UHGV virus genome: UHGV-0375936
Length of the DNA: 64,000 nucleotides
Strand: one strand, 5' to 3'
From: a virus
Both the position numbers and the translations under genes were made by a program. Numbering within the stretch: the stretch's first letter is position 1; every line of letters begins with the position of its first letter. Below are positions 18,026 to 54,631 of the stretch, piece after piece. The notes beneath the pieces were generated by a model. The model worked only from the letters and a program-made list of their open reading frames with translations, ran no database searches and was not told the origin of the DNA.

Positions 18026-19522
18026 TTATTTCTTTTTCGTCAGGAACTTCGGTTCTAGTCCATCAACAGCCATACCCAGAATGGTACGTGCAGTCAGTGT
18101 ACGTTTACCGCCTTTGGTTTCCTGGTCTTTAAACATCCAGTATTCTACCGTGTTGTCCAGAATTTCATTCCAGTCCCACTTCTCGTCAATCAGTTTGTAA
18201 ATCTCACCCATGCTGAGATGATACTTCATTTCAAGACGATGGTAGTTGTTTTGCATATACGCAATTGCCGCAGTGATTTCTAAAGCGCGACGTAAGCGGG
18301 CGTTATCAGAAATCATATCACGGATTGTCGTGCGTTGGAATTTCACACCAGGCAGAATGTCCAGTTCTTTGATGGAGCCGCCACTACCGCTTGATGTGAA
18401 ACCAAAGTCTGATTTTTTCAGTGTGTCACTTAAATAGTGCCACAGGCTCAGGTGATATAACAGACCCATTTCCTGAGAGAAGATCATCTGAAATTTCACA
18501 CCGGTATGACCACCCTTCGCACGATACTGGGTAAAGGTGATAATCTTCAAGTCGTTTACCGACGCATTCATCGCCTTAGAACGTGACGTCGGATAAAGTT
18601 CTTCGTTAACACCGGTCTGTGCGTTATAGCTCTGGTCTTTCTTCAGTTCCCCTGATTTCGTCGCGACGATAAAAGAGTTTGTTAAAAAGCTAAGCTGACG
18701 GCGAGGAATACCTGCGAATTTTAAATCGTCGTTGGCGTCGTCGAGAATTTTCGCATTTGCTTTTTGAGCCTGTCGGCCACCCGCCATCGCTTTCCCAGAG
18801 TCATCGGCCATCTGTGCCACGAAGCCCATGTAAAAACCACCGCGTGCAAACGCAGACGGCCAGCGGCTCATCATATTCGATTTTTGCAGCGCATCGTGGG
18901 CGTTCAGGATGTTCTGATCAGAATCCCCGATATCCGTTTTTGCGTGCTTGTCTTCCAGCGAACTGGAATGCCACTCTGACAGGGAGTCGATAGAATAAAG
19001 CCAGGGGTCCAGGATTTCTTTTAACTTACGACGAACCGGATCGGGGAACGGTGTTACGCGGGTCTTACCAGACATATACTGCTTGAAGCGTTTTTCAACT
19101 TCATCACGAATATAATCACTGTAATACTGTTCCCCAGGCATTACGTCAGAACCGACCAGGTTATAACGACCTTCGTGGATAAGTTCCAGTACGGATGTTC
19201 CGTCGTCGATACCGTTGGCGTTCATGGCAGAGATGTACCCAGTTTCTAAACGATCGAGGGCAGCGGACACTTCTGTATCGTACTTAGAACCCCACTCTGC
19301 TTTATAACGTTGCAGGATTTGGAAGATACAGAAATCTAACAAGGTGGATTTAAAGGTGTTACCGCGACCTGCGAAACCCATGATGTGGGCAAAACCACCG
19401 TTAAGGTAGTACAAACCATCTTCACCTTTTTCGTAGTTACCTAAGGCATGATCCATGATGGTGTAAACGTTAAAACGTGGACGAATTACTTCACCGATAA
19501 CTTGCTTAGTTGGGCCTGCCAT
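18026..19522 (-). CDS. Hypothetical protein (498 aa)
   Basis: Long ORF with GGAG before ATG; no motif I can assign with confidence. Confidence 0.6.
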   Translation of the reverse strand: MAGPTKQVIGEVIRPRFNVYTIMDHALGNYEKGEDGLYYLNGGFAHIMGFAGRGNTFKSTLLDFCIFQILQRYKAEWGSKYDTEVSAALDRLETGYISAMNANGIDDGTSVLELIHEGRYNLVGSDVMPGEQYYSDYIRDEVEKRFKQYMSGKTRVTPFPDPVRRKLKEILDPWLYSIDSLSEWHSSSLEDKHAKTDIGDSDQNILNAHDALQKSNMMSRWPSAFARGGFYMGFVAQMADDSGKAMAGGRQAQKANAKILDDANDDLKFAGIPRRQLSFLTNSFIVATKSGELKKDQSYNAQTGVNEELYPTSRSKAMNASVNDLKIITFTQYRAKGGHTGVKFQMIFSQEMGLLYHLSLWHYLSDTLKKSDFGFTSSGSGGSIKELDILPGVKFQRTTIRDMISDNARLRRALEITAAIAYMQNNYHRLEMKYHLSMGEIYKLIDEKWDWNEILDNTVEYWMFKDQETKGGKRTLTARTILGMAVDGLEPKFLTKKK

Positions 19523-21636: not shown

Positions 21637-21661
21637 TTTAATACTCCTAAACACTTTTAGC

Positions 21662-24982: not shown

Positions 24983-25651
24983 CTATCTAAGAATATTTTT
25001 AGCGAAAAAAGGATCGACTATAAACTCCTTCACCTGTGAGTCATAACCCGAATGTATTTGATCGCTACTGAGCAAATACCCGTCTAAATCGTGTGGAAGA
25101 ATCCAAGAATCCCCCTGTTTAAAAATACCATAATCTGTTGTTCCAGAGGAAAAAACGATTTCCTCTGGAGAGGGATAGATGTGGCGTAAGGCAAGATCAG
25201 ACGGCTTTAGCACGATTAATCGAACGGGATGTTGACTGACTGCCTCTTTAATAAACTGTTCACGATTAAACCAAATTATTTTTTCGGGGTAAGTTTCGAA
25301 TTCAGCCCATGTCCGCGTGATAACTAATTTGGAAATCTTTCTCAATTCTTCAGAATGCTCTGCGTAGCCGATACACTCCTTGCGTACTTCATGATTTTCT
25401 ACCGATGCTGTGAATTTTTGGAATAGGTGTTGTTGGAAAAAGCCGTTCTCCGGGATATCACAACCCGCGTTGTATAGTGCAACGATCTCCCACAACAACG
25501 AAAGAGAAAACACAAATGCTAACTTTTCCACAACTTCCCAATCTTCGGAGTAAGGGGCTTTAAAGCCCCAATACTGCCGTGCGTTATACATAAAGTGAGT
25601 TTGTAAAAACCGAGGGGCTTTTGACAAGACCTCACTATAAACGATCAGCAT
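24983..25651 (-). CDS. Hypothetical protein (222 aa)
   Basis: ORF, minus strand. Confidence 0.55.
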   Translation of the reverse strand: MLIVYSEVLSKAPRFLQTHFMYNARQYWGFKAPYSEDWEVVEKLAFVFSLSLLWEIVALYNAGCDIPENGFFQQHLFQKFTASVENHEVRKECIGYAEHSEELRKISKLVITRTWAEFETYPEKIIWFNREQFIKEAVSQHPVRLIVLKPSDLALRHIYPSPEEIVFSSGTTDYGIFKQGDSWILPHDLDGYLLSSDQIHSGYDSQVKEFIVDPFFAKNILR

Positions 25652-27165
25652 TCAAGCTCCTTATCCGTCAATATTCGTTTGTTTGAATAATAGCCGCACC
25701 ACAACCCATGATATTTTTCCCCGATATAAACCAACGCGTACTCGATATACTGCCGTTCTGGACGCCGTACCGCCACGTAGAATCGTCCTTCTGGTTCTTT
25801 CATACGGTTGATTTCCGTACGCGTCGGTATGTCGATACCTCGAGTAAGGATGGTTTTAACCTTGTTTTTGCTACCTGGGATATGGATGGTTACGTCAAAA
25901 CCTTTATCTACGTTACGATAAAAGTCTTTCTTCGGCTTACCTTTCTCATCGTAAAGCAGGTCAGTAATGTCGTTCATTACGACTGAGTTTTTCCCCTCCA
26001 TGGCATCGCGTAACCAACCTGCAAGCTCATCACGAATCGTAATGCAGCGATAAGACAATAACGCGGGACGAAGAATTCGTGTAATCGAAAGATCTTCAAA
26101 CATCCACAGGTTTTTGTCTTCGCTAAAATGCATCCGTTCGATAGGAATACCGTTAGCTGCGGCTTCTGCGAACTTCTTACGTTTTACGAATAAGTTAAAT
26201 ACAACGGCGATGGGATCAAATTGACGTAAACGGGGCACCCCTTCCCACGCTTTCGCAGAGTGGGTATTTACCAACTCGTATACGTTATCCCACGGTTCTT
26301 TGGTAAACATTACGCAGAATTGTGCGTCTGGAATGTACTTACCAACGAAGACGATATCGTCCTTCTGTTTTGCATGGTTCCCACCGAACATGTAATAAAG
26401 TTTATTACCGTTAACCGTAACCGTGGGATGCGGTTCGTTCACCATCGGGTAACAGAACTTCGTAACACAGATATCAGGAAAGGCAGACAAATTGACACCC
26501 TCGCCAACAACTTCTGGTTGCTGTTCTTCCTCAGGCATCTCGTCTTTTGACCAATACGGTGTATAGTCTAACCCATCACCTCGAGCCGAAATACTTGAAC
26601 CTTTCCGTGCTAACTCGTCGGCACGTTCGTTTCCATAACGTCCTGAATGCCCTTTAATTTTAAGGACACGAACACCTTTCCCTTCTTTCTTTAACCGCTG
26701 TTTAACCTCCCACATCCGTTGGATTAATTCCAAGTTCGCAATAGGTGTACCGTCTGCACGACGCCAACCGCGTGCAGCCCAACCATCAATCCAATCGTTA
26801 TACGTGTTGACAACGTAAGAGGCATCGATATAGATAACATAGTTTTTGGCAACGAAAGGTGCGTGTTCGAAGACGGTCAGGAAAGCCACGAGTTCTGCAA
26901 CGTCAGAGTGTGACATTTTTGGTACAGGCACAACGCCGTCAATAAACTCCACAGTTTCTGGTAAAGGTGGAAGTTTTTCATCCTTGTTTATCTGGCGGTA
27001 TCCTGACGACGTAATCCCCTCTGGAATAGAGGGATGGCGGTAAACCCGACCATCCTCAATCGCTTCACGATTAAATAAGTATCCATGAATCCCCGCTCCT
27101 GTACCGAGCGGGGAGGTCAAATGGCTACCATCCGTGTAAATTACTGCAACATCAACGTTCTTCAT
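25645..27165 (-). CDS. RNase HI domain protein fused to ~300-aa uncharacterized C-terminal region (506 aa)
   Basis: N-terminal VAVIYTDGSHL...GTGAGIHGY and later IKGHSGRYGNERADELARKG match RNase H type 1 signature; C-terminal half unassigned. Confidence 0.65.
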   Translation of the reverse strand: MKNVDVAVIYTDGSHLTSPLGTGAGIHGYLFNREAIEDGRVYRHPSIPEGITSSGYRQINKDEKLPPLPETVEFIDGVVPVPKMSHSDVAELVAFLTVFEHAPFVAKNYVIYIDASYVVNTYNDWIDGWAARGWRRADGTPIANLELIQRMWEVKQRLKKEGKGVRVLKIKGHSGRYGNERADELARKGSSISARGDGLDYTPYWSKDEMPEEEQQPEVVGEGVNLSAFPDICVTKFCYPMVNEPHPTVTVNGNKLYYMFGGNHAKQKDDIVFVGKYIPDAQFCVMFTKEPWDNVYELVNTHSAKAWEGVPRLRQFDPIAVVFNLFVKRKKFAEAAANGIPIERMHFSEDKNLWMFEDLSITRILRPALLSYRCITIRDELAGWLRDAMEGKNSVVMNDITDLLYDEKGKPKKDFYRNVDKGFDVTIHIPGSKNKVKTILTRGIDIPTRTEINRMKEPEGRFYVAVRRPERQYIEYALVYIGEKYHGLWCGYYSNKRILTDKELEC

Positions 27166-34478: not shown

Positions 34479-34976
34479 CTATTTAAAAGAGTTTGGAATT
34501 AATGACTCTGCTTCTTGGTACAGCTTATCAGGTAAATATAACGTGTAGCGCTGCCTCCTCGGTTCAAGTTTTTTGTAAAGCCACAAAAAGATTTCTTGTC
34601 TTTCCCAGGAATCTAACCACCCATTTGCCATCCCCAGTGGAGGGATAGCAACGCTGGTATCCAGATCCTCAGCACAGTCTGCTAATGCGGTAATGCCCGC
34701 AGTAACATAAGAAACCTGGGATTTTAAACGCCAATGTGTTTTCGTGGGGAGCAAGATACACTTTTCGTCAGAGTAAACGTAAACGCTTCCAATCTTAATT
34801 TCGTCTTCACGACACCGCTTACGATAATCCTGATAAAGGTTGGGGTAGCGTTCACGACACGCGAGTGCAATACCGCGACCCATCGCTCCTACGCAGTTAA
34901 TGGTAACGACTTTATAGTCTTCGGGCGCATTAAAAAGATCGTTACCAATTTCAGATTCTTTACGTACCGTTAACAT
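34479..34976 (-). CDS. Macro domain protein, TARG1/OARD1/DarG-like (ADP-ribose processing)
   Basis: NDLF...KVVTINCVGAMGRGIALACRERYP and LGMANGWLDSWERQ resemble my recollection of the TARG1-type motifs; track start at 35039 is TTG, ATG at 34976 used. Confidence 0.6.
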   Translation of the reverse strand: MLTVRKESEIGNDLFNAPEDYKVVTINCVGAMGRGIALACRERYPNLYQDYRKRCREDEIKIGSVYVYSDEKCILLPTKTHWRLKSQVSYVTAGITALADCAEDLDTSVAIPPLGMANGWLDSWERQEIFLWLYKKLEPRRQRYTLYLPDKLYQEAESLIPNSFK

Positions 34977-35063
34977 AACGAAACGCCCGGAGTTGATGTG
35001 TAGTATTAAAACGTGTACCGCCGATTGATAGCTCGACAAGTATAGCGATATATGTTTTACCCA

Positions 35064-35700: not shown

Positions 35701-36144
35701 TTAGAATGTTTTGCTAAAATCGACCCACTCACGATCGTGTGAGTAAACCGCTTGATAGCCGCGTCGGATGAAATACTCTTTTGCTTCTTTACATTTCGCA
35801 TACATGCCAGTAACAATCTCGCCGAAAACTTCATCAGCTGCAATTGCTTTGAAAATCTCTTTCATTACACCCCGTTGACGATAGTCTGGGAGCACGTATA
35901 CCGAACGTATCTTAAGTGAACCGTTACGATTCCGATAACTACAGTATCCTACCGCGACATCATCCTGATACACCAGAACTATGCAGTTACCTTCGATCAG
36001 CTGTCGCGCATTTAACTTCGGCACCGACATTTTGATTTTCAGTAACGTGGCCTGGTGGTCTAAGTAACGGTAGTGTAGTTTGAGTAAATCGGCAGCTTGT
36101 CGCTCGCCAACTTTAGAAGATGCGTTCAACAAATAAATTTCCAT
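35701..36144 (-). CDS. GNAT-family N-acetyltransferase
   Basis: VLPDYRQRGVMKEIFKAIA (acetyl-CoA binding R/Q-x-x-G-x-G/A type motif); track start is TTG, ATG at 36144 used. Confidence 0.55.
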   Translation of the reverse strand: MEIYLLNASSKVGERQAADLLKLHYRYLDHQATLLKIKMSVPKLNARQLIEGNCIVLVYQDDVAVGYCSYRNRNGSLKIRSVYVLPDYRQRGVMKEIFKAIAADEVFGEIVTGMYAKCKEAKEYFIRRGYQAVYSHDREWVDFSKTF

Positions 36145-36175
36145 TTGCAAACCTTAGAGACGCAAAAAAGTAAAA

Positions 36176-36304
36176 TTAAAACCAACGCGCGATGACGAAA
36201 GCCGCAGCGGCTAATATGGCTGTGGTGATTATCAATCCACCCCATGAAAGTTCCGCGTCGTATAGTGCGGATATCGCTACATTCGTAGCGTTTATCGTGG
36301 TCAT
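36176..36304 (-). CDS. Micro membrane protein (42 aa)
   Basis: ORF below track cutoff; CAGGAGCAGAAA-ATG; MTTINATNVAISALYDAELSWGGLIITTAILAAAAFVIARWF. Confidence 0.4.
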   Translation of the reverse strand: MTTINATNVAISALYDAELSWGGLIITTAILAAAAFVIARWF

Positions 36305-36361
36305 TTTCTGCTCCTGTCAATACCCTCACACCGGAGGGTATCTTCTGGACTATTTGGGTGG

Positions 36362-36460
36362 TTAATCTTCGAACGCCCAACGGTGACGTTTAATCAGCCA
36401 GTTTAAACCTTTACCAATTAACCACAACGAGCCAAGTGTTAACAGAACCCCTACAACCAT
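36362..36460 (-). CDS. Micro membrane protein (32 aa)
   Basis: ORF below track cutoff; AGGAGAGGGAAT-ATG; MVVGVLLTLGSLWLIGKGLNWLIKRHRWAFED. Confidence 0.4.
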   Translation of the reverse strand: MVVGVLLTLGSLWLIGKGLNWLIKRHRWAFED

Positions 36461-36470
36461 ATTCCCTCTC

Positions 36471-36650
36471 CTAATTCCGCCATTCGCATTCGCGTTGACG
36501 CCAAATTGAACCCCACGATAGTTTAATCAGATAAGATGAAACTACCCATAAAATCATCACCACACAAAACATGACATAAAGAACCGCTAGAATGGACATG
36601 AAGCCAAACCCTGCCGCATCCACAATACGACGGAACCAATCAGTTTGCAT
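36471..36650 (-). CDS. Small membrane protein (59 aa)
   Basis: AAGGAG upstream of ATG at 36650; hydrophobic FGFMSILAVLYVMFCVVMILWVV; overlaps 3' end of SbcC-like gene. Confidence 0.45.
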   Translation of the reverse strand: MQTDWFRRIVDAAGFGFMSILAVLYVMFCVVMILWVVSSYLIKLSWGSIWRQRECEWRN

Positions 36651-39144
36651 AAACAATTTTTACTCCTTCGTTATACACCGCAGGCAATGTCACCCCTTCC
36701 GGTTCGATGACACAGTACGATGCTTCATTAAGTTTAGAATGAACCTCGGCTTCGTGGGAGACTACCAACAGTTGGGAAAATTCTCCCGAGTTTGCTAACG
36801 TTTTAATAAAACCGACCAGGTTGTTACGGTGCTCCTCATCCATGCCTTCCGAAGGCTCATCCAAAAGCAACGGAAACTGATGCAACTTCAGCGCTTTGTA
36901 CGCAGTCAGCCTGAACATCAGATTAAATATCGCACGCTGCGCCTTAGACCCTTTACGCACGTCAGGAACAGGCTCAGGATGCGTTTTTAGCTGGACAGGA
37001 AAAGTATAATCCAAATCGCCGTCAGTGAGGTCACAAGGCATAACGCGCATGGGGTACGTCCAGACCTGTTCGATATAACGCGTCATTAACTCTGTGATTC
37101 TAACGATAGCGTTGTAAAAATACTTTCTAAGTACACCCTTTTCTGGCGAGAAGGCTTGAATCATCAGTTTGTTATTGAACTGCTGGGCTTGTAAGTCAGC
37201 AAGTTCGCGTTCCAAACTGTTGAGCTGATTCAATTCATTTTCCATCTGACGATAACGTTCGCGTGCGGTTGTAAAAGCATCCAGCTTCCCTTCTCGAGCA
37301 CGTAAGAGTTCCTCGACGACCGTATTTGTCAACGTAACCTTAACATCACTCTCTAACCGTTCGAATAACGCACTGAAATCATCTACAGCACGTTTAACAT
37401 TCACCAGATAGGTAAGTGTCGTGTTAGCCAGTTCGTGCTCTCTACGACGCATTGAGAGCATCTCTGTGGCTTTACCTAATCGTGACTGTTGAAAAGCAAT
37501 TTTCTGTTGTAAAGCACCATCGACGTTACCAACGGCCGCTACGGCATCCTGCCATTCTTTTTCCGCCTTCACTAACCGTTGTCGGGTTTCATGGTACTCA
37601 ATAGCAGAGTACAACTCACTGTCAAACGCTGCGCATAGACTACCGAACTGTTCACGTGATTCTGTGAAAACGTTACGTTCTTGCAAACGCTTAAAGAACA
37701 TGCTCAATACCGGGTCCTTTGAATACGTCAGCACAATCTCACGAACCTGCCGCATATAAGTTACATCAGATTCTAACTCAACACGATCGCGTAATAGGGC
37801 CTCTAACTGCGTTTGCAGTTCCGTGCGCTGCTGCTGTTGTCCACGAATCGAAGACTCAAGTTCAGGTAAAGAACGTGTAACACCAGGCCGAAACTTAAAC
37901 CGGCACTGCGGACAATCCACTTCCGCTGTTTCTAAGTAGTGATTACGTTCGTGATTTAAATTCTGTAAAACGTTCTCCACTCGCTGGAGTCTATCCCGCA
38001 ACCCTGCGGTTTTTTGATCCATCACCAGAAGCCGTTCTTCCAAAACATTGAGTTTTTCAGTTGAATGAATTGCGTCCAGTGTTGTTCCTAACCGTTGCCC
38101 CCAAACACGCGCATCGGTAGCCGCACGAAGTTGGTCTAAATTGACGTTGTCGTTAAATAGACCCGGAAAGAGATGCTCGGTGTCCCATTTGGTAAGTAAC
38201 TCACGTAAACGCGCCAATGTATTCTTGAGACCTTCGTGATTCCGCATCAGGTAGTCTTGTCGTGTTGACTCATCCATCAATAACGACAAGTCTTTATTCA
38301 ACATCGATACCTCTGTTTCAGTAGACACGACAGCTTCGCGGGCCGTCGCTTCGTTTTGTCGCGCGACCAGTATCTGTTCATCGGTAGGCAGGCCACCACG
38401 ATGTTGTAATATTGCGTCGATGGTTGGGCCCAAGCTGTTTAATAACGCTTGGATTGTTTCGATGGTGACGGCACGATTTAATCCTGGCAACTGTTCGATT
38501 TCTCGGTTCAATTCACGTAAATCCGATTCCAAACCTTTTAATCTCGTCGCTAACTGCTGCCGTTCTTCCTCGTTCTCAATAACACGCGTCCGTAATTCGG
38601 CGATCTTGCGGCTGGTGATTTCAATACCCCCATTTAAGGCAGTAAGGTTTTTACGTAAACGTTGATAAAACCCTAACGCGTAAGTGAGGTCAGAGGTACT
38701 TAAACGGTAAAACCATTTGCGGCGTAATTCGGTTCCCGCATCGGTTAACAACACCTCACCATTTAATAGTTCTTTAATCTCTTTCGTAATACCCGTGATT
38801 TCTTCAACACGGGAGTTGTAGACTTTCGCATTACCTTGCTCGACGATCTTTGTCCCCGTGGTCAGGTTCTCAATATCGCAAACCAAAGAGTTGCCTTTAC
38901 GGGCAACTTTGAATCGATAGCGTTGATCGCCAACTAAACAGTAGTTCGTGTAAGAACCGCCGTCCCTGAATTCAGTTTTAGCTGGTGCTAAGGGTAAGAA
39001 CACAGACAGTAGACTGGTTTTCCCGCAGCCGTTCCCACCCAGGATAATTGTTGTCGGAGACTGGATAGTGAAATCGAAGGTTTCAATTTCATGTAACCCC
39101 ATCCCCGTAAAACCTTTGAGTATAATGCGTTCAACTTTTAGCAT
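36640..39144 (-). CDS. SbcC/Rad50-like SMC-family ATPase with CxxC zinc hook
   Basis: Walker A ILGGNGCGKTSLL; long coiled-coil middle; CPQC hook; Walker B/D-loop LLLDEPSEGMDEE; start set to ATG 39144 preceded by GGAGGTGGG. Confidence 0.7.
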   Translation of the reverse strand: MLKVERIILKGFTGMGLHEIETFDFTIQSPTTIILGGNGCGKTSLLSVFLPLAPAKTEFRDGGSYTNYCLVGDQRYRFKVARKGNSLVCDIENLTTGTKIVEQGNAKVYNSRVEEITGITKEIKELLNGEVLLTDAGTELRRKWFYRLSTSDLTYALGFYQRLRKNLTALNGGIEITSRKIAELRTRVIENEEERQQLATRLKGLESDLRELNREIEQLPGLNRAVTIETIQALLNSLGPTIDAILQHRGGLPTDEQILVARQNEATAREAVVSTETEVSMLNKDLSLLMDESTRQDYLMRNHEGLKNTLARLRELLTKWDTEHLFPGLFNDNVNLDQLRAATDARVWGQRLGTTLDAIHSTEKLNVLEERLLVMDQKTAGLRDRLQRVENVLQNLNHERNHYLETAEVDCPQCRFKFRPGVTRSLPELESSIRGQQQQRTELQTQLEALLRDRVELESDVTYMRQVREIVLTYSKDPVLSMFFKRLQERNVFTESREQFGSLCAAFDSELYSAIEYHETRQRLVKAEKEWQDAVAAVGNVDGALQQKIAFQQSRLGKATEMLSMRRREHELANTTLTYLVNVKRAVDDFSALFERLESDVKVTLTNTVVEELLRAREGKLDAFTTARERYRQMENELNQLNSLERELADLQAQQFNNKLMIQAFSPEKGVLRKYFYNAIVRITELMTRYIEQVWTYPMRVMPCDLTDGDLDYTFPVQLKTHPEPVPDVRKGSKAQRAIFNLMFRLTAYKALKLHQFPLLLDEPSEGMDEEHRNNLVGFIKTLANSGEFSQLLVVSHEAEVHSKLNEASYCVIEPEGVTLPAVYNEGVKIVYAN

Positions 39145-39164
39145 ACCCACCTCCATAAAGACGG

Positions 39165-39217
39165 AGTGTGGTGTAAAAAGAAAAAAATAAAGAAAGGGAG
39201 AACCCGAAGGTTCTCCC
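39165..39217 (-). terminator. Rho-independent terminator (minus strand)
   Basis: GGGAGAACC-cgaa-GGTTCTCCC hairpin then long T-run on minus strand. Confidence 0.65.
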
Positions 39218-39222
39218 TAACG

Positions 39223-39831
39223 TTATTTGGTATACAGCTGATAACCCATTGAAGCCCAATAATCAATGTTCTTCGCGTTTTCTACCCAAACCTGTCCCGC
39301 CTTTGTGGCTAAGACTTCCATTGTCAATGTACAGATCAGATTTGTTACCTGGATACAATTTCCAGGTGTAACATCATCCAGATAAACCGGATATAAAAAC
39401 GGCGATTTAATGGATTGGTACGGGTAAGAATAGTGGCTACCGACTTTCCACCCTTCTTCTACAGGGCAGAGATTATAAGTGCGTGTTTCAGGAACTGCGT
39501 TTTCAGAGATCCAGTTAACAACATCGGCTTTAATTCGATCGTGGTCGATATAGTAGAACACAACACGCTGTGGGATACTTGTGGTACCAGCCGGGTCTAA
39601 AGCCTCCAACGCCTTAAAAGGCGACGTTAACAATGTTGTACTGTTCTCAAGCGCGTAAACCAACTTTTCGTAAGCAGTCGGTGTTTTGCGTTTAAAATAT
39701 TCCCGTAAGCGAGGGTAAGCCAGGAAGCCCTCTACTTCTTCTTCCATTAAGTCAATGAATAAAGGCGTATGCGAAAACCGCTCTGCATTTTGCATCGCTT
39801 CAAGAAAACGAACTAATGTAATTTCGTTCAT
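39223..39831 (-). CDS. Hypothetical protein (202 aa)
   Basis: ORF, minus strand; no metallophosphatase motifs seen. Confidence 0.55.
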   Translation of the reverse strand: MNEITLVRFLEAMQNAERFSHTPLFIDLMEEEVEGFLAYPRLREYFKRKTPTAYEKLVYALENSTTLLTSPFKALEALDPAGTTSIPQRVVFYYIDHDRIKADVVNWISENAVPETRTYNLCPVEEGWKVGSHYSYPYQSIKSPFLYPVYLDDVTPGNCIQVTNLICTLTMEVLATKAGQVWVENAKNIDYWASMGYQLYTK

Positions 39832-39879: not shown

Positions 39880-39887
39880 CGGGCTAA

Positions 39888-40430: not shown

Positions 40431-40820
40431 TCAAAGATCTAATTCGATAGCACCAGCCATCTTGCCCCGTTCTTCTATAACGATCAGATAACGGTCGCGA
40501 GATTTGCTTTTAGCGAGAGTTAAGACAACGGTAGGGTCGCACGTTTTCGTGGTGATAGGAAGAACCTCTCTTGCGACGGAATCGAGCAGAAAGTAATAAC
40601 CTGCGGGACACATTGTGCCGCCATCAGCTTTTACCAGAATATAGCGCCCGTCTGCGCCGACTTCTTGGCAGATTGTTTCACCGACTTCGCAAACTTCAAA
40701 CCCCGGAGGATTGTACTGGTAATCGGTATTGTTGTTTGGGGTTAGCAGTAAATCGTTAACTTGAGTAGATGCTGCTACACTCAGGGAGAAGAAGAATGCT
40801 AAAACGCAGACGAGACGCAT
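40431..40820 (-). CDS. Secreted small Cys-containing protein 1 (129 aa)
   Basis: Signal-like MRLVCVLAFFFSLSVAAS; AAGGAG RBS; CEVGETICQ...GRYILV motif shared with next gene. Confidence 0.6.
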   Translation of the reverse strand: MRLVCVLAFFFSLSVAASTQVNDLLLTPNNNTDYQYNPPGFEVCEVGETICQEVGADGRYILVKADGGTMCPAGYYFLLDSVAREVLPITTKTCDPTVVLTLAKSKSRDRYLIVIEERGKMAGAIELDL

Positions 40821-40830
40821 GAGTTACTCC

Positions 40831-41241
40831 TTAAATTTTAAGTTTATCCATAGCTACAACGATAGGTTTTTCCGAAGTGTCTAATATCCCTACCATTGGC
40901 ACACCATCTACGACTTCGAAGAATGGTTTGTTATTACCAGAGCATAGACGTTTGTCGTTGTATTCGAGACGCTGAGCCTTCCACGTTTCGAGGTTGAGTA
41001 CGGACATTGGGCTGTCGTAGCACCAGGCACCACCTTGCTCAACGATGAATACGTATCTGCTACCTTTGTATTTAAACAGGCTCTTTGCCTGGCAGTACAA
41101 CCCGTCTATTTCCGTACAATAGAAATCATCGGTGCTATTGACGTACTTAATATTGTCTGGCAACTGTATTGTCTTTGCTGTAGCGTTGACAGAGAACAGA
41201 ACAGCCATTGCAATGAGAAGAGTATTAATGATAGTTTTCAT
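40831..41241 (-). CDS. Secreted small Cys-containing protein 2 (136 aa), paralog of protein 1
   Basis: Signal-like MKTIINTLLIAMAVLFSVNATA; CTEIDGLYCQ...SRYVFIV. Confidence 0.6.
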   Translation of the reverse strand: MKTIINTLLIAMAVLFSVNATAKTIQLPDNIKYVNSTDDFYCTEIDGLYCQAKSLFKYKGSRYVFIVEQGGAWCYDSPMSVLNLETWKAQRLEYNDKRLCSGNNKPFFEVVDGVPMVGILDTSEKPIVVAMDKLKI

Positions 41242-41252
41242 GATAAAAGTCC

Positions 41253-41738
41253 TTAGTATTTAGATTGTTCTACGTACTTCTTAACCAGGTAAGCGAATTC
41301 GGCAACACCGATATCACCGAACCAAATCAGGTAACCGGGGTCGATGTTGTAGTAATAACCGACGAGTTTCTTGGTGTGTGGGTTGTATAGCGTTACGATG
41401 TATTCCCAACCACAAGCGTTAGCTTTACAACCGCCACTTTCAATCCAGATTTTGTTGTTGATGTTTACCGGATACATGTTACCGCCAGGGCCATCCATGT
41501 AACCTTTAGAGCCGAACATACCATCCAGTCCCACAGGGTCTAGTGTTTTATCAACAACGGCTTTAAACGACTTATCGGTATCGTACAAGTCGTTGATGTT
41601 TGGGCACGCATTTGGCTGGCCTTCCCAAGCGTTTCCATCACAGGTAAGCAATTCGTCTACGGAGGCCGCATCTACAGTTGGCGTGGCACCGATAAACAAG
41701 AAAACCAGAAAGAACATCAGTGTATGTAAACGTTTCAT
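41253..41738 (-). CDS. Secreted small protein 3 (161 aa)
   Basis: Signal-like MKRLHTLMFFLVFLFIGATPTVDAA; Cys pairs CDGNAWEGQPNACPN, CKANAC. Confidence 0.6.
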   Translation of the reverse strand: MKRLHTLMFFLVFLFIGATPTVDAASVDELLTCDGNAWEGQPNACPNINDLYDTDKSFKAVVDKTLDPVGLDGMFGSKGYMDGPGGNMYPVNINNKIWIESGGCKANACGWEYIVTLYNPHTKKLVGYYYNIDPGYLIWFGDIGVAEFAYLVKKYVEQSKY

Positions 41739-41756
41739 TGTAACTACTCCTTTAGA

Positions 41757-42149
41757 TTATTCGGCAGGACGATTTAAGGTAACGCGTCCGATTAATTCAG
41801 CGTTGTGAAAGAAGTCCACAGCGGTATAGTTACCAACTGATAGCGGATGGATACTAACTGACATTACTTTTGGTTGTTCGCAGGCGATATCCGTCAGGCG
41901 TTGGTAGACTTGTGCACGAGTGTCAGCAATGAGTAATCCCGTACACGTTTCACCACGCACTAAACGATAAACTTGCAGTTTACCGAAACTGCGCATTAAC
42001 GTAGGCGTCTCATCCGGGTTGATAATCGGTGACTCAGGAGCCGGTTCGTAATAGCGGACATCCGAATCACCGAAAGCATAAGTGCCAGTAATTCCGACCG
42101 CACAGAAAACAATGATAGTATAAAGTATAGTTCTGATATTCATTTTCAC
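41757..42149 (-). CDS. Secreted small protein 4 (130 aa)
   Basis: Signal-like MKMNIRTILYTIIVFCAVGITGTYAF. Confidence 0.6.
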   Translation of the reverse strand: MKMNIRTILYTIIVFCAVGITGTYAFGDSDVRYYEPAPESPIINPDETPTLMRSFGKLQVYRLVRGETCTGLLIADTRAQVYQRLTDIACEQPKVMSVSIHPLSVGNYTAVDFFHNAELIGRVTLNRPAE

Positions 42150-42171
42150 GCACTCTAAAAAAGATTAATAC

Positions 42172-42633
42172 TTATTTGTTAGGACGGGTGTGTCCACAGT
42201 TCTGGAAGAAAGTTTCAGATAAACGATCGCCTTCTACGGTAAAGTTAGCGGCATCGTTACCATTGATACTCACACTGAAAGTTTTGGCATTACCGATAGC
42301 ATTAACGAAAGCAACCCAAGCGTGTTCTGCCTTGTCGCTACCGTCCACGGTAGGGATGTTATAGGTTTTGCCGTTTACGACAATATCCATCATGTTATCT
42401 TCAGCGTTAGTTGCACCTACGGGTTCCCCGTAATACCAAACCATGCGACCGTAAAATTTGCGATTCACAGTTTCTGTGTCACAGTTGATAGACAGTCCGT
42501 TTCCGGCGGTGTCTTCGATTTCGTAAACTGCCTGGCCAGGGTTTTGTATTTGTTCCCAACTATTGATTGCAGCGTATGCGCTATTGAGGCCGAAAGTTAA
42601 AATGGTTATTAAGAATGTGATAAAGGTTTTCAT
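42172..42633 (-). CDS. Secreted small protein 5 (153 aa)
   Basis: Signal-like MKTFITFLITILTFGLNSAYA. Confidence 0.6.
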   Translation of the reverse strand: MKTFITFLITILTFGLNSAYAAINSWEQIQNPGQAVYEIEDTAGNGLSINCDTETVNRKFYGRMVWYYGEPVGATNAEDNMMDIVVNGKTYNIPTVDGSDKAEHAWVAFVNAIGNAKTFSVSINGNDAANFTVEGDRLSETFFQNCGHTRPNK

Positions 42634-50298: not shown

Positions 50299-53200
50299 AT
50301 GGCTGTCGTCCTAGACCCACACTTCAAAAAACCGGGGAATAAAATAACCGGTGAAGCGGTCGCCGTCATTGGTACGAAATACCGAATGTTGGTACCTGCC
50401 CACGCCCCTTTTTTCACCACATCCCTGGTGGTCAAGAGCGGCGGCAAAACACTGACCTTAGGCGACGATTACATTATTACACACCCGTACGAGACCGGTA
50501 TGTTGCGCACAGCCTATCTCATTCACGGGATGATTTGGATTGTTAATGACAAATACAAATCGAATTTTACGGTAGATTACCACGCCGTTGGTTGTGGTCA
50601 GGCTACCCAACAACAGATTACCGCAGAACGCGAACTCAATAAAGATAAATACCCGACTACGTGTCAGTGGGACACCGTCATCGGGGACGTTTACTTTCCG
50701 CCGGTCGATATCCAGTTCGATTGGGAGAATTGGAAAGGTGAACTGGAATTAATGCAGGCTATTGCTGGATTAGGCGATTCGTTAGGGGAAGTCGTGAGTC
50801 GACTTAACCCCATCGCACGCAATACCCTGGATTTAGAATACCGTGCTAACAGCAAGGTTATCACTTCCGAGCAGTATGCCGCATACGACAATAAAGGTGG
50901 GTTCACCTACAACACTACCCGTCATCGTTATAGCTTGAGTTATAAAACTGCAACCTTTAACGACTACGCCCTGTCAGTGAAACATAGAATTCCTGCTATT
51001 CTGCCAGACATGACGAAATTGAATCCAAACGAACAGATCGATTGGATGCTCTGTTATGCTAACGGCGGGGCAAGTATTCTACGGCTGCAGCTAAAACAGC
51101 GCAAAATCTCACTGGTCTTAACGGTCGCTATTGGTAGCGGTTCAACAAACTACGATTATACGTTAATCAACGGTTTAACTGACGATGAGTTAAAAAACGA
51201 TATCGATTTTAGTGTAACCCGTCAACCCGGAAACGGTGTTTACGTCATCGTAGTAAAAACAAATAAACAGACCATGGATTACACATTCAACGTCGATACG
51301 CCGCCTGATGAGTTCTCGGCAGGGTATTCGAAAACGGATGTTGCTAAATGGTTGAAGTCTAAAACGAACATTAACCTGAACTGGTATGCTGGACAAAAAG
51401 ATTATGTTCAAATTCGTTCTTTACCCGGCGCACCAGAACCTGACGTCGACAACGATGTTTACCAGTTAATAGTTAAATACCATCAATTAGTTGAGCAGCT
51501 GTATCGTAACGCGCCTGCACACGAACACGTTACACGTAAGGACAACCCGCACACCGATACGTGGGGCCCGATCCGTGCGTTACAGCTGAATGGTATTGCG
51601 TCGGATGCCGCGTTAGCTTACGGGAAAACGAAACAACAGTTAACGGATTATGTTAATGCTAAGTACCCAACACAAGCAACGTTAACCGCACAGAAAAAAC
51701 TGCTTCGTGAATCGGCGAACAAGAACGTTAACGGCACGATTACCACACTTCCGGGTTTTACTTCGTTCACGACGGAAGTTGATCCGGTTTCGATGTCGAA
51801 ATACGTGAGTCCTAGTTTTAGCGAAAGCTACGTTAGTAATGGTCACAGGTATCACGGTGCGCTTCGTTACACAGGAACGAAAAGCGGTTTCAGTGCTAAC
51901 TTTAATGCGGTGCCTGCCAACCTGCAAGATATTGACTTTATTGTTACCGGACGTAAAACAGCGTCTGGTAACGAAGCTGTCGGTGCAGTTGGTTTGCGTT
52001 TCTACGAAAACCCCGGTAGTAACTCCGGTAAGTTTGTAGAGATTAACGGACAAATCTGGGCTGGTACCCTTACTATCAGTCTGACATTGAACGGTTACGG
52101 GAGTCCGTTACCGTCGGTGCGTTATATTTCTCAAGCCCCTAATCCGGCAATACCGGATGGAGATTTTACGCTACGTTTTCAACTGAAGCGTACAGGGAAC
52201 GTGTTTGACGTCGTTATTACCGTAAACGGTAAAACGTATAGCGCCCGGATTAACTTCAATAACATGGACGCTGCGTTAGAAGCATTAGAGAATCAGCACC
52301 ACTTTAAATCGCTGATCAATAATGTTGCCGATGGCGTCAAAATTAGTTCGCAAAACAAAGGTAACACGGTTACCATTAAGAAAGCACCGGATGTCGTTGA
52401 CGGAACTCGTTTAGGTGCCCAGTTTGTCGTTGATCCGAAATCCATTAAGTTTATTGGCCAAGGTTCAACTGATGTTAACGTAGGAAATAACCCCGTAACG
52501 TTCCAAGCAGGTACTAACCAGCTTATGTTGTATCCTGACGATCGTGGGTTACAGTGGCGTGGTAAAAAACTCTTAGACCCTACCACCGTGGCCCCGTATC
52601 TGCCAGGTAATACCGCAGGTGGTACCGGTTTATTCTACGCAAGCTCGACAACAACAGTTACGATCACTGGTAGCGGGATAAAAGCTTCGCCGTTCGTAGC
52701 GACCTTTATTCTCCCTACCGCGACCGATACAACGGCTCTGGCAGCTTGGCAGTTGACCGATGAGTTCGGTACTGCTGAAAACCTTGCAGCAACGCCAGCA
52801 CTGATTGAAAAACTGGATGCGGAGTTCACCGGTAAGTTAGTTGCAGTTAAATCGTACATTAACGACATGCAGCTTACCAGCTCGGTTACTATCGATAAGA
52901 TTACCTTCGGTTTAGGTAATGTTGCGAATACGCCCGATGTCAATTTACCGATTTCTACAGCACAGCGTGCGGAGTTAGATAAATACTCGCCTAAGGTTCA
53001 CCAACACCCGTTTACCGCTTTTGGTACCGGGAACGCAACCACAGCGAAACGCGGTCTGATTAAATTTGGTCTGGATGTGGATGATGCGACTTTAGCACTC
53101 GATGGGAGTGTGGTAATGGCGCAGACTTCCCAGATTGAAAAATTGGAGAGTGCTGTCGGCGGCGTTGACTCGGAGGCACGTCTTGATATCATACGTTTTG

Positions 53201-54621
53201 GTGAGTCTGGTAACGACTTAATAGACGTTACGGTCAAAGACAAAATTCTGGTCACGCTTCCAGCTTCAACGTATTTTATCGGTGGCGAAACGTACACCGT
53301 ACCGTTGATGACGATTAACGTTAGTGAACGTTTTCCGAAATTGAATACAGAGATCTACGCGGGGATTTTTGTTGATATTGTTGATAACAAAGCGAAGTAT
53401 ATTATCCACGACAGCTACAGTCAGGCCGAAACGGATACCATGACGCGTGTGGGGTTGATCGGCGTCAACGACCTTTCTGAGGTGTTCGTTACAGAGATGC
53501 GTAATGTCACACGGTTGGGTGATTTCCGTGAACTGAAAGATCATAAAGCCGATGACAACGCACACATTCAGCGCTCCGCATCACGTGCAGCGCTTGGGTT
53601 AGCTAACTTAACCGTAGGTGCGCCTTGCTGGGCTTCTGGACTCCAGGCAGTAGTACGCGGTGAAGCAGATTGGCGTTATGTTGCCGGTGGACAGTATAAA
53701 GCTTTAGACGGGGTGAAATACGACCAGCTCGCATCCAAGTGGATTTTTGACGCGAAAGGGGTAAGCGATAACCTACACGGGTTTATCCACAACATGTTCC
53801 CAGCTTTTAAGAACGCAGGAATGCGGGTAAGTTGGGAAACAGAAAGCAACGCAAAAACCGGCACGGTGTTAGAAACTGTTTTAGGTTGTTGGAAAAACAC
53901 CGACGGCGAGTTTATGCGGTTGTCGTTACTTATCACTCGTGGTTATCGTTTAACTGACAGCAACGGTGAGTATTGTTACGCAGGGTTCGGTTTGAACTTC
54001 GGTAGCGGGAAATCGGTAGTGTTAGGTTTCACACCAACGAAGCGTGTTACGCCTGCACCGTGGAATACGTTACAACCTGACGTAACGTTTACCCACACCC
54101 GTGCTGCAAATAACGCATTAACGTTTAACGCAACACTGACCTTAGCGGGCACTACGTATACCGTCGTGGTGTTTTTATCTGCGACAGATAAATACGTAAG
54201 CTGCACGGCAGCAGGGGGAGCTACGCAGAAAATCCCTCTAACTGACCGTTTAACAGGGTTCAACCTCGCACCTATCGTTAACGATCCGTATACCCCTATT
54301 TACTACGGTTTAGGGGGACTTTATGAGGATGAGGTTCGTGCCAACATCCGTTCTACGGCAGACAGCGCAACCGCGAATAAAGTCTACGGTACGTTGTTAG
54401 ACTATATTAGCAACTATTCCTCATTAAATCGTGTGCGCGTTATGGAATTGAGCGGTGTCAGTTCAGACCCCGAAACGCTTAATGCGTTAGTGGCAACTGA
54501 ATTTAATAACAACCTGGCGGATTACGCCGCGTTACCGATACCTTCTTATCTTAACAAGGAGCGCGTAATGTCGTTTATCGACACCAACAATAAAGTGCAG
54601 GCGGTAATCATTCGCGATTAA
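50299..54621 (+). CDS. Giant tail fiber protein A (1440 aa)
   Basis: Tail-fiber motif FGLGNVANTPDVNLPISTAQRAELD...HQH; ATTAKRGLIKF repeat; N-terminal module VPAHAPFF..LVV...LGDDYI shared with next two ORFs. Confidence 0.75.
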   Translation: MAVVLDPHFKKPGNKITGEAVAVIGTKYRMLVPAHAPFFTTSLVVKSGGKTLTLGDDYIITHPYETGMLRTAYLIHGMIWIVNDKYKSNFTVDYHAVGCGQATQQQITAERELNKDKYPTTCQWDTVIGDVYFPPVDIQFDWENWKGELELMQAIAGLGDSLGEVVSRLNPIARNTLDLEYRANSKVITSEQYAAYDNKGGFTYNTTRHRYSLSYKTATFNDYALSVKHRIPAILPDMTKLNPNEQIDWMLCYANGGASILRLQLKQRKISLVLTVAIGSGSTNYDYTLINGLTDDELKNDIDFSVTRQPGNGVYVIVVKTNKQTMDYTFNVDTPPDEFSAGYSKTDVAKWLKSKTNINLNWYAGQKDYVQIRSLPGAPEPDVDNDVYQLIVKYHQLVEQLYRNAPAHEHVTRKDNPHTDTWGPIRALQLNGIASDAALAYGKTKQQLTDYVNAKYPTQATLTAQKKLLRESANKNVNGTITTLPGFTSFTTEVDPVSMSKYVSPSFSESYVSNGHRYHGALRYTGTKSGFSANFNAVPANLQDIDFIVTGRKTASGNEAVGAVGLRFYENPGSNSGKFVEINGQIWAGTLTISLTLNGYGSPLPSVRYISQAPNPAIPDGDFTLRFQLKRTGNVFDVVITVNGKTYSARINFNNMDAALEALENQHHFKSLINNVADGVKISSQNKGNTVTIKKAPDVVDGTRLGAQFVVDPKSIKFIGQGSTDVNVGNNPVTFQAGTNQLMLYPDDRGLQWRGKKLLDPTTVAPYLPGNTAGGTGLFYASSTTTVTITGSGIKASPFVATFILPTATDTTALAAWQLTDEFGTAENLAATPALIEKLDAEFTGKLVAVKSYINDMQLTSSVTIDKITFGLGNVANTPDVNLPISTAQRAELDKYSPKVHQHPFTAFGTGNATTAKRGLIKFGLDVDDATLALDGSVVMAQTSQIEKLESAVGGVDSEARLDIIRFGESGNDLIDVTVKDKILVTLPASTYFIGGETYTVPLMTINVSERFPKLNTEIYAGIFVDIVDNKAKYIIHDSYSQAETDTMTRVGLIGVNDLSEVFVTEMRNVTRLGDFRELKDHKADDNAHIQRSASRAALGLANLTVGAPCWASGLQAVVRGEADWRYVAGGQYKALDGVKYDQLASKWIFDAKGVSDNLHGFIHNMFPAFKNAGMRVSWETESNAKTGTVLETVLGCWKNTDGEFMRLSLLITRGYRLTDSNGEYCYAGFGLNFGSGKSVVLGFTPTKRVTPAPWNTLQPDVTFTHTRAANNALTFNATLTLAGTTYTVVVFLSATDKYVSCTAAGGATQKIPLTDRLTGFNLAPIVNDPYTPIYYGLGGLYEDEVRANIRSTADSATANKVYGTLLDYISNYSSLNRVRVMELSGVSSDPETLNALVATEFNNNLADYAALPIPSYLNKERVMSFIDTNNKVQAVIIRD

Positions 54622-54631
54622 GGAGAATTTT

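Follow-up and report, generated by a model that had tools for sequence, protein, structure and literature searches.

The SbcC locus and its gene product

The window, that is, the whole 64-kb stretch of viral DNA that was analysed, contains a gene for an SbcC/Rad50-like ATPase on its minus strand. The gene is preceded by one for a 202-aa protein and followed by small membrane-protein genes. The features of this locus are listed below in the direction of transcription.

39223..39831, minus strand: upstream gene for a 202-aa protein (phrog_9964, unknown function)
39195..39218, minus strand: terminator-like hairpin with a 10-bp stem and a TTCG loop, then a T-rich tail, in the gap that separates the SbcC gene from the 202-aa gene
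39145..39156, minus strand: extension from an alternative upstream ATG (39156-39154) that overlaps a GGAGG Shine-Dalgarno sequence
36640..39144, minus strand: SbcC/Rad50-like ATPase gene, 834 aa (open reading frame, phrog_77, homologues, profile and fold)
36471..36656, minus strand: gene for a single-pass membrane protein of 59-61 aa, its start overlapping the stop of SbcC (phrog_16515, E 9.4e-5)

Hairpins similar to the one ahead of SbcC also follow two upstream genes (40420-40400 and 39880-39861).

The first-pass annotation gave the length of the ATPase as 834-838 aa, and both lengths can be read from the sequence. The frame encodes 838 aa if the in-frame ATG at 39156 is used (36640..39156, minus strand) and 834 aa from the second ATG at 39144. 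The 834-aa product, with ATG 39144 as the true start, is likely because the Shine-Dalgarno sequence (39154-39150) lies 5 nt ahead of this ATG, SbcC homologues start with MLKVERI, and the database protein P0121, which is 99% identical to the window SbcC, is 834 aa long.

Sequence motifs and predicted architecture of SbcC

Motifs were numbered on the 834-aa product, and invariance was judged across an alignment of 13 SbcC homologues that reaches down to 19% identity and includes phiKZ gp165 and EL gp118.

39016..39039, minus strand: Walker A (P-loop) GGNGCGKT, residues 36-43; N38, G39, G41 and K42 invariant in the 13 homologues
37930..38685, minus strand: outbound coiled-coil arm, residues 154-405 (AlphaFold2 model)
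37903..37914, minus strand: CPQC zinc-hook motif, residues 411-414; C411, P412 and C414 invariant in 13 of 13 homologues
37150..37869, minus strand: return coiled-coil arm, residues 426-665 (AlphaFold2 model)
36937..36948, minus strand: ABC signature-motif equivalent SKAQ, residues 733-736 (HMMER alignment); S733 invariant
36838..36870, minus strand: Walker B and D-loop LLLDEPSEGMD, residues 759-769; D762, E763 and D769 invariant
36754..36759, minus strand: H-loop SH, residues 796-797; S796 and H797 invariant, opposite the "SH" of Rad50

The AlphaFold2 model of SbcC (pLDDT 81.9) follows the order head, coiled coil, hook, coiled coil, head, with two predicted helical arms of equal length. The outbound arm comprises helices 154-188, 192-218, 228-247, 255-319 and 365-405, and the return arm helices 426-474, 478-489, 499-535 and 545-665. 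CPQC occupies the exact midpoint between them, within a short beta-turn, and presumably serves to bind zinc. The model contains no globular hinge between the arms, which are joined instead by a 20-residue turn carrying CPxC. In a profile search, both head lobes align to Rad50 from P. furiosus and M. jannaschii, and in the HMMER alignment SKAQ stands opposite SGGE, the signature motif in the P. furiosus protein. By sequence alignment alone, the region around residues 130-145 shows no conserved Q-loop glutamine, R141 being its only invariant residue.

SbcC belongs to the Rad50/SbcC family

A megablast search with the SbcC gene against a phage collection returned no match. The window phage is absent from that collection, which made it necessary to search at the protein level. 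SbcC matches phrog_77, annotated as "SbcC-like subunit", with an E value of 1.3e-91 (310 bits), and shares 71% amino acid identity with Erwinia phage Asesino gp207 and 58%, over the full length, with Salmonella phage SPN3US gp186. The window is part of the genome of a phiKZ-like (Chimalliviridae) jumbo phage, with these two phages as relatives.

When the SbcC family profile was searched against the PDB, the best 11 matches were all Rad50 (heads, 3.5e-12), and the top Foldseek match of the SbcC model was the Rad50 chain 7zr1_C (2.8e-18). Whole-chain TM-scores were low, about 0.3, owing to the long coiled coils. On the single protein, Pfam SMC_N scored 34.5 bits, below its gathering score of 40, and the NCBIfam Rad50 model PRK01156 scored 40 bits against a cut-off of 847. 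Both models derive from cellular sequences, and phrog_77 is phage-specific; the sub-threshold scores mark the divergence of SbcC and not its exclusion from the Rad50/SbcC family. The original description of the gene as an SbcC/Rad50-like ATPase with a zinc hook therefore holds, on the strength of the ATPase motifs, CPQC, the coiled coils, phrog_77 and the top rank of Rad50 by both profile and fold.

The nuclease gene probably lies outside the window

The first-pass annotation had noted that no Mre11/SbcD-type nuclease gene adjoins SbcC, and the same is true of the entire window. A regular-expression scan found no metallophosphatase pattern in the 187 window open reading frames of at least 60 aa, and the family SbcD used as a query against the 64 kb returned nothing (best E values of 0.9 with tblastn and 0.45 with phmmer). 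The annotation had left two explanations, a partner encoded outside the window or a different partner altogether, and had proposed a search for a calcineurin-like phosphoesterase in the rest of the genome.

Beyond the window, a 382-aa SbcD is encoded by each of two near-identical IMG/VR contigs, UViG_3300045988_113438 and UViG_3300029126_000001, both of which also encode a 99%-identical SbcC. Measured over 8.5 kb around SbcC (window 33.6-42.2 kb), their DNA identity to the window is 94.9% and 97.6%, respectively. SbcC and SbcD are 86.9 kb apart in UViG_3300029126_000001; in UViG_3300045988_113438 the distance is 130.6 kb as assembled, or 86.5 kb the other way if the map is circular. In these relatives SbcD shares the strand of SbcC and lies about 87 kb further downstream. 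From genomes 95-98% identical in DNA, we infer that the window phage also carries SbcD, at a position outside the 64-kb window, in line with the first of the two explanations. For the second we found no evidence. The annotation had named as counter-evidence a canonical SbcD/Mre11 gene encoded elsewhere and co-varying with the ATPase gene in related phages, and the SbcD described here is such a gene, co-occurring with SbcC.

The distant partner is a Mre11 homologue

Single-sequence tests of the partner were weak, and its identity was settled through a 41-sequence profile and structure prediction. SPN3US gp27, taken alone, matched Pfam Metallophos with an E value of 0.032 and NCBIfam sbcd with 0.0012, and phmmer against the PDB gave only noise; a narrow 12-sequence SbcD profile also found no match in the PDB. 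The family SbcD matches phrog_100, "SbcD-like" (E 8.5e-64), and its metallophosphatase motifs are all invariant, with GTPSHD in place of GNHD as motif III. Across the 41 sequences, the invariant residues are D22, H24, G57, D58, G97, T98, S100, H101, H180, H212 and H214. The 41-sequence profile retrieved T. maritima Mre11 from the PDB (9.2e-12), as well as P. furiosus Mre11 and E. coli SbcD.

The AlphaFold2 model of SbcD has a pLDDT of 91.4. In the PDB, Mre11/SbcD structures take all of its 17 best fold matches (2.2e-14 to 3.4e-8), and the first non-Mre11 metallophosphatases appear at 1.4e-5. E. coli SbcD chain 7yzo_A was matched at 1.2e-13, and the Foldseek alignment with T. maritima Mre11 chain 3tho_B spans the full length. 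After a flexible linker, the model shows C-terminal helices at 331-342, 356-363 and 371-381, which would bind Rad50. Profile and predicted fold together confirm the distant partner as a genuine Mre11 homologue.

SbcC and SbcD co-occur and are far apart in phiKZ-like phages

Co-occurrence was compared through record counts, 40 listed SbcC rows and 11 phages with coordinates for both genes. The number of phage records is 290 for SbcC-like and likewise 290 for SbcD-like proteins, their breakdowns by host genus are nearly the same, and 40 of 40 SbcC records among the matches listed are also in the SbcD list. In the 11 phages, the two genes are separated by 74-148 kb. The phiKZ proteins ORF165 (SbcC-like) and ORF065 (SbcD-like) form the orthologous pair, 113 kb apart. 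Throughout the phiKZ-like jumbo lineage the two genes always lie far from each other, at about 75-165 kb, which accounts for the lack of SbcD beside SbcC. Adjacency of the two genes, taken as the rule in the first-pass annotation, is correct for T4 and T5 but fails for the phiKZ-like family.

This split arrangement in phiKZ-like phages is already known, having been described for SPN3US and phiKZ in 2016 (PMC5105663). SPN3US gp186 was identified as the "SbcC subunit", its essentiality shown by an amber mutant, and its partner gp27 as SbcD, "drastically separated within the genome" from gp186 (Thomas et al. 2016, J Virol, PMC5105663). SbcC and SbcD have been called "practically universally conserved" in jumbo phages (PMC7824862), and phiKZ 065 and 165 are core-genome genes, antisense knock-down of either of which gives a phenotype (PMC12571901). 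The value of the present case is mainly correct annotation; public labels of related SbcC genes are inconsistent and include "SMC domain-containing protein", "hypothetical protein" and "nuclease SbcCD subunit D". Linked genes are routinely scattered in phiKZ-like jumbo phages, as with SbcC/SbcD and the RNA polymerase subunits, so that a neighbour absent from a 64-kb window is no evidence of an absent partner. This calls for caution in scans that judge completeness by gene adjacency.

Neighbouring genes and alternative readings

We consider it very probable that this phage makes its own Mre11-Rad50 (SbcCD) complex, for which the gene supplies an ordinary Rad50/SbcC subunit and a distant gene supplies SbcD. 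Were it instead an orphan Rad50-like ATPase that had lost Mre11 and works with an adjacent protein other than a metallophosphatase, the 202-aa protein or the micro-membrane proteins would be the candidates; no nuclease adjoins SbcC or occurs within the window, and both the gene for the 202-aa protein and the membrane reading frame of 59-61 aa that overlaps SbcC hold their positions in Asesino and SPN3US. Such a reading is highly improbable and has already been largely refuted, given that a Mre11 homologue is encoded elsewhere in the near-identical genomes and occurs with SbcC in every related phage record examined. The 202-aa protein lacks a metallophosphatase motif, as first annotated, and matches nothing in Pfam, NCBIfam or PADLOC and no nuclease family. 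Its gene is confined to a minor subset of these phages, 35 records compared with 290 for SbcC and SbcD, and does not stand beside SbcC in six distant relatives (phiKZ, EL, RSF1, RTH11, phiKT1019 and Deimos-Minion). It also diverges faster, with 48% identity to its Asesino counterpart versus 71% for SbcC, and the terminator-like hairpin separates the two genes. On the record count, the hairpin and the lack of a nuclease signature, we rejected this neighbour as an alternative partner. A role in defence or counter-defence, with the protein an SMC-like ATPase akin to Lamassu LmuB, Wadjet JetC or PtuA, is extremely unlikely, although the PADLOC LmuB model matches over the full length (E 1.9e-18) and LmuB structures appear among the fold matches at about 3e-12. 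The title of PMC12663957 describes Lamassu as having evolved from DNA repair machinery, and cross-matches to LmuB are expected from such a descent. The comparison of Rad50/SbcC with defence-type SMC models, suggested at the outset, came out in favour of Rad50/SbcC: LmuB scores 65 bits against 310 for the phage SbcC family, and Rad50 ranks first by profile and fold. The neighbours include no LmuA- or LmuC-like gene and have no PADLOC match, and SbcC is a conserved, essential core gene of the phage lineage that co-occurs with Mre11. A defence-type identity was rejected on score, gene context and this co-occurrence. We give equally little credence to a true SMC or condensin-type organiser that would serve, without a nuclease, in the compaction or segregation of phage DNA within the phage nucleus. 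The GenBank label "putative SMC domain-containing protein", SMC_N as the best Pfam match, and Smc5/6 and condensin at ranks 3-9 of the fold search point in this direction. SMC_N, however, is a generic head-domain model that includes Rad50 and SbcC, the hinge-less turn with its invariant CPxC is a Rad50 hallmark, the neighbours include no kleisin-like partner, and co-occurrence with Mre11/SbcD is strict.

The downstream genes were originally described as micro membrane proteins, and each of the three small reading frames (59-61, 32 and 42 aa) does contain a strongly hydrophobic segment. The 59-61-aa frame, with a highest 19-residue Kyte-Doolittle hydropathy of 2.82, is the counterpart of SPN3US gp187 and Asesino gp208 and keeps the same position in these relatives. 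A tblastn search with its 59-aa form found nothing, the query probably being too short and hydrophobic, and only the weak PHROG match was obtained. A small membrane reading frame by SPN3US SbcC has been noted by analogy with T4 gp47.1 (PMC5105663). Along this analogy, the membrane protein of SPN3US/Asesino-like phages might be translationally coupled to SbcC and tether Mre11-Rad50, with the 202-aa protein as an accessory factor peculiar to these phages, but we regard this as unlikely; neither gene is conserved across the wider phiKZ-like family. Such tethering, an idea put forward earlier for T4 gp47.1, would be to a membrane or to the boundary of the phage nucleus.

Proposed mechanism of the SbcCD complex

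Family membership, co-occurrence and separation of SbcC and SbcD are shown by the present analysis; the steps of the mechanism were inferred from T4 gp46/gp47, E. coli SbcCD and archaeal Mre11-Rad50 systems. By analogy with these, two SbcC ATPase heads would dimerise upon ATP, and their antiparallel coiled coils of about 250 residues would be joined at the tips via a zinc ion shared by the CPQC hooks. The SbcD/Mre11 dimer would dock at the coiled-coil base via its C-terminal helices. The resulting physical complex, probably acting inside the phage nucleus, a structure that phages of the Asesino type do form, would have DNA ends as its substrates, recognising and resecting them and so feeding recombination-dependent replication and repair. 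A UvsX-like recombinase, whose gene lies 17 kb from SbcC in the same window, may act alongside the complex in these processes.

Comparison with known systems

E. coli SbcCD and archaeal and eukaryotic Mre11-Rad50 have in common with the window SbcC a CxxC hook at the coiled-coil apex, and cellular Mre11-Rad50 provides the best PDB profile (Rad50 heads) and fold matches for SbcC and SbcD. The sequence identity to these cellular systems is only 10-18%, scores fall short of the curated cut-offs of the cellular family models, and the phage genes, unlike the cellular ones, are not in an operon. Lamassu LmuB likewise combines a Rad50-like head with a coiled coil; the window SbcC differs from it in its stronger match to phage SbcC, in its gene surroundings and in being a core phage gene that occurs with Mre11.

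T4 gp46/gp47 and T5 D13/D12 have the same two-subunit architecture and belong to the same PHROG families, phrog_77 and phrog_100. The two genes lie side by side, or almost, in T4 and T5, whereas tens of kilobases separate them in the phiKZ-like phages, where motif III of SbcD also reads GTPSHD in place of GNHD. T4 gp46/gp47 carries out end resection for recombination-dependent replication, a role that the window SbcC presumably shares. T4 also encodes a small membrane protein, gp47.1, nearby, as is the case at the window SbcC. The SPN3US proteins have no BLASTP-level similarity to those of T4, and the SbcC coiled coil exceeds that of T4 gp46 by about 300 residues (PMC5105663).

Within the phiKZ-like phages, phiKZ ORF165 is a full-length homologue of SbcC (E 5e-62) and ORF065 of SbcD (E 1e-31). 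ORF165 has the invariant CPxC hook and the ATPase motifs, but identity is only 22%, and the immediate neighbours differ: a baseplate or structural gene stands back-to-back with the phiKZ SbcC gene, and the inserted block of small genes is missing. SPN3US is closer, its gp186 being orthologous to the window SbcC and its gp186/gp27 pair likewise split, about 147 kb apart in the record. The flanking order is the same in both phages: the 202-aa gene, SbcC, the overlapping small membrane reading frame, an acetyltransferase, a macro domain protein and a transglycosylase. SPN3US and the window phage differ only by sequence divergence, the window SbcC being nearer to Asesino gp207.

SbcC is a Rad50-type ATPase

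The window SbcC gene is an uninterrupted minus-strand ORF of 838 codons (36640..39156). Because a GGAGG Shine-Dalgarno sequence (39154-39150) is followed 5 nt later by a second ATG at 39144, all homologues share the start MLKVERI, and a database protein with 99% identity, P0121, has 834 aa, the product is most likely 834 aa long. The size of 834-838 aa and the motifs named in the first-pass annotation are all present. The AlphaFold2 model has a mean pLDDT of 81.9.

Motifs of SbcC and segments of its AlphaFold2 model (residues)
1-150: N-terminal lobe, beta-rich (model)
36-43: Walker A, GGNGCGKT
154-405: first helical arm (model)
411-414: CPQC hook; both cysteines lie in a short beta-turn between the arms (model)
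426-665: return helical arm (model)
672-834: C-terminal lobe (model)
733-736: SKAQ, signature-motif equivalent
759-769: Walker B and D-loop, LLLDEPSEGMD
796-797: H-loop, SH

A 13-sequence alignment extends to phiKZ, EL, RSF1, RTH11, phiKT1019 and Deimos-Minion (19-23% identity). Unchanged throughout it are the Walker A residues, D762, E763, D769, S796, H797 and the C-P-x-C hook. The profile built from it has a Rad50 head as each of its top 11 PDB matches and covers both lobes (best E 3.5e-12), and SKAQ aligns with the Rad50 signature SGGE. The protein matches phrog_77, "SbcC-like subunit of palindrome specific endonuclease" (E 1.3e-91, 310 bits). Curated cellular models respond weakly, with Pfam SMC_N giving 34.5 bits against a gathering score of 40 and NCBIfam Rad50 giving 1.1e-10, far under its cut-off. 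Foldseek ranks Chaetomium Rad50 first (2.8e-18), followed by Smc5/6, condensin, Lamassu LmuB, MukB and JetC. TM-scores come out low, which a long and flexible coiled coil would predict. SbcC is set apart from true SMCs by the hook that replaces the hinge.

A very unlikely alternative is a defense-type ATPase like LmuB of Lamassu: the PADLOC LmuB model matches SbcC at 65 bits, and LmuB structures appear among the Foldseek matches at about 3e-12. The PADLOC score is, however, much weaker than that of the phage SbcC family, and Foldseek places Rad50 ahead of LmuB. Going by the title of PMC12663957, Lamassu has its evolutionary origin in DNA repair machinery, so a match of this kind is to be expected. 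The phrog_77 match, the PDB profile and Foldseek ranks and the invariant hook thus bear out the first-pass reading of an SbcC/Rad50-like ATPase with a zinc hook.

The partner gene most likely lies outside the window

Metallophosphatase motifs are absent from all 187 window ORFs of at least 60 aa, which extends to its whole length the earlier observation on the genes flanking SbcC, and tblastn and phmmer searches of the window with family SbcD returned nothing (best E 0.9 and 0.45). Two related IMG/VR contigs, 94.9% and 97.6% identical in DNA to the 8.5 kb around SbcC (window 33.6-42.2 kb), encode both a 99% identical SbcC and a 382-aa SbcD.

SbcC and SbcD in the two contigs
UViG_3300045988_113438 (220,786 bp): SbcC 150,910-153,423; SbcD 19,128-20,276
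UViG_3300029126_000001 (225,000 bp): SbcC 53,672-56,185; SbcD 143,104-144,252

In both, the two genes share a strand, with SbcD about 87 kb downstream, or about 131 kb the other way. Downstream of SbcC the window has just 36.6 kb, and upstream 24.8 kb; at the distances seen in the contigs the partner necessarily falls outside it, the first of two options that had been proposed.

SbcD belongs to the Mre11 family

In Salmonella phage SPN3US, gp186, the orthologue of the window SbcC, is essential by amber mutation; gp186 and gp27 were named as the SbcC and SbcD subunits, and gp27 as "drastically separated within the genome" (Thomas et al. 2016, PMC5105663). SPN3US_0027 (21020-22168) carries the annotation "nuclease SbcCD D subunit". 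It is about 147 kb away from SbcC and matches phrog_100 "SbcD-like" at 8.5e-64. As a single sequence, it gave thin evidence for Mre11 homology (Pfam Metallophos, E 0.032; no phmmer match in the PDB), and a narrow SbcD profile gave no matches. We therefore gathered 250 SbcD homologues and aligned 41. The resulting profile detects T. maritima Mre11 at 9.2e-12 over almost its full length, as well as P. furiosus Mre11 and E. coli SbcD. In this alignment the catalytic residues do not vary. Motif III, canonically GNHD, reads GTPSHD in 41/41 jumbo-phage sequences (no variation at G, T, S and H; at least 90% conservation of P and D), and HMMER aligns it with "G--NHD" of T. maritima Mre11. An AlphaFold2 model of the homologue P0001 (pLDDT 91.4; 93% identical to SbcD of UViG_3300045988_113438) has Mre11/SbcD proteins as its best 17 PDB matches (2.2e-14 to 3.4e-8), other metallophosphatases following from 1.4e-5. 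Jumbo-phage SbcD thus belongs to the Mre11 family.

Separated SbcC and SbcD genes are the rule in phiKZ-like phages

Megablast of the window gene against the phage collection gave no match. By tblastn, the closest SbcC proteins are those of Erwinia phages Asesino, Stratton and phiEaH2 (70-71% aa), then the Salmonella SPN3US group (58%), with a tail of phiKZ, EL, 201phi2-1 and further phiKZ-like jumbo phages. A canonical SbcD elsewhere that co-varies with SbcC in relatives had been named beforehand as what would refute a missing nuclease partner, and we found such co-occurrence: in tblastn, SbcC, SPN3US SbcD and SbcD of UViG_3300045988_113438 each retrieve 290 phage records. SbcC and SbcD agree almost exactly in their genus counts (Pseudomonas 81, Erwinia 62, Salmonella 25 or 24, Vibrio 22 or 23, Serratia 21, Aeromonas 19, Klebsiella 16, Ralstonia 13), and 40/40 SbcC records among the matches listed recur in the SPN3US SbcD list. 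The genes lie about 74 to 148 kb apart in the 11 phages with both coordinates (SPN3US, Asesino, phiKZ, RTH11, Aeromonas D6, AH04, C-ZP2022, Yong MS31, MJ359, GXNNE2 and sp. 30-1). The phiKZ homologues, ORF065 (SbcD, E 1e-31) and ORF165 (SbcC, E 5e-62), are listed as core-genome genes, each with an antisense knock-down phenotype (PMC12571901), and Iyer et al. 2021 call SbcC plus SbcD "practically universally conserved" in jumbo phages (PMC7824862). An SbcC without adjacent SbcD is the normal, already published gene arrangement of this family; the feature is real and correctly identified, and the anomaly only apparent.

Public annotation of these orthologues is inconsistent. For SbcC, Proteus phage 7 and Salmonella phage MET_P1_082_240 have "nuclease SbcCD subunit D", SPFM2 has "Chromosome partition protein Smc" and Aeromonas phage ZPAH34 has "recF"; for SbcD, pEa_SNUABM_8 has "RNA polymerase beta prime subunit" and a single JGI record has "LpxH".

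Neighboring genes

Genes around SbcC and elsewhere in the window
34479..35039 (-): macro-domain protein (Pfam Macro, 6.5e-6)
35701..36150 (-): GNAT-type acetyltransferase (phrog_3810, 1e-25)
36176..36656 (-): three micro-ORFs (59-61, 32 and 42 aa) directly downstream of SbcC
39223..39831 (-): 202-aa protein; sole match a PHROG of unknown function
40431..42633 (-): five consecutive small ORFs (129, 136, 161, 130 and 153 aa)
50299..54621 (1440 aa) and 54632..58816 (1394 aa) (+): adjacent giant virion structural paralogues

The other option raised was that SbcC works with a different partner, for which the adjacent 202-aa protein would be a candidate. Asesino and SPN3US do share the window order of 202-aa gene, SbcC, overlapping small membrane ORF, acetyltransferase, macro-domain protein and transglycosylase. 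Yet the 202-aa protein is limited to 35 phage records, has changed more quickly than SbcC (48% versus 71% identity to Asesino), is missing beside SbcC in distant relatives, has no nuclease signature and no Pfam, NCBIfam or PADLOC family, and is separated from SbcC by a GC-rich 10-bp hairpin and its T-rich tail (39218-39195), which together argue against this option and leave the distant SbcD as the preferred partner. Six distant relatives likewise have no nuclease adjoining SbcC, which usually stands back-to-back with a baseplate gene.

Three successive genes (129-, 158- and 202-aa ORFs) are each followed by a GC-rich hairpin and T-rich tail, at 40400-40420, 39861-39880 and 39195-39218 (-). 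These hairpins suggest that the genes upstream of SbcC are transcribed one by one; the regional hairpin count (8 versus 5.1 +/- 2.3 expected from shuffling) is not clearly higher.

Downstream, each of the three micro-ORFs has one strongly hydrophobic segment, in keeping with their description as micro membrane proteins, and the first (59-61 aa) overlaps the SbcC stop codon. This ORF is common to Asesino and SPN3US, whereas the six distant relatives have no such ORF next to SbcC. Annotations include tiny counterparts of the micro-ORFs in Asesino (gp208-211) and SPN3US, where Thomas et al. 2016 noted the small transmembrane gp187 directly following gp186, with T4 gp47.1 as analogy (PMC5105663). 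The macro-domain and GNAT genes, just downstream of the SbcC block and kept in Asesino and SPN3US, are possible ADP-ribose/acetylation-related host-interaction genes. Each of the five small ORFs at 40431..42633 has a signal-peptide-like hydrophobic N-terminus and no Pfam match; together they resemble a family of phage proteins that are secreted or periplasmic. The giant paralogues cross-match the same PHROGs (phrog_7557, 8078, 7449 and 2163) and probably belong to the paralogue family mentioned by Thomas et al. for SPN3US gp168.

Proposed mechanism

SbcC is in the Rad50 family, SbcD is in the Mre11 family, and the two co-occur. The model systems for their mechanism are T4 gp46/gp47, E. coli SbcCD and archaeal Mre11-Rad50. 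By analogy, SbcC and SbcD would form an M2R2 complex in which ATP drives head engagement, the coiled coils of two Rad50 subunits are joined by the zinc hook, and Mre11 docks by its C-terminal helices. Such a complex would resect DNA ends to feed recombination-dependent replication, presumably in the phage nucleus, because Asesino-type phages replicate inside one (PMC11724907).

Two further window genes fit this pathway:
18026..19522 (-): UvsX-like recombinase, 498 aa (phrog_97, E 1.1e-55), 17 kb from SbcC
25645..27165 (-): RNase H-like nuclease, 506 aa (phrog_3265 "ribonuclease", 6e-170; RNase H-like region phrog_531)

The latter, which is not a metallophosphatase, is the one other nuclease-type gene that the ORF scan revealed. 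In T4-type recombination-dependent replication, a UvsX-like recombinase would be expected as the partner acting downstream of Mre11-Rad50.
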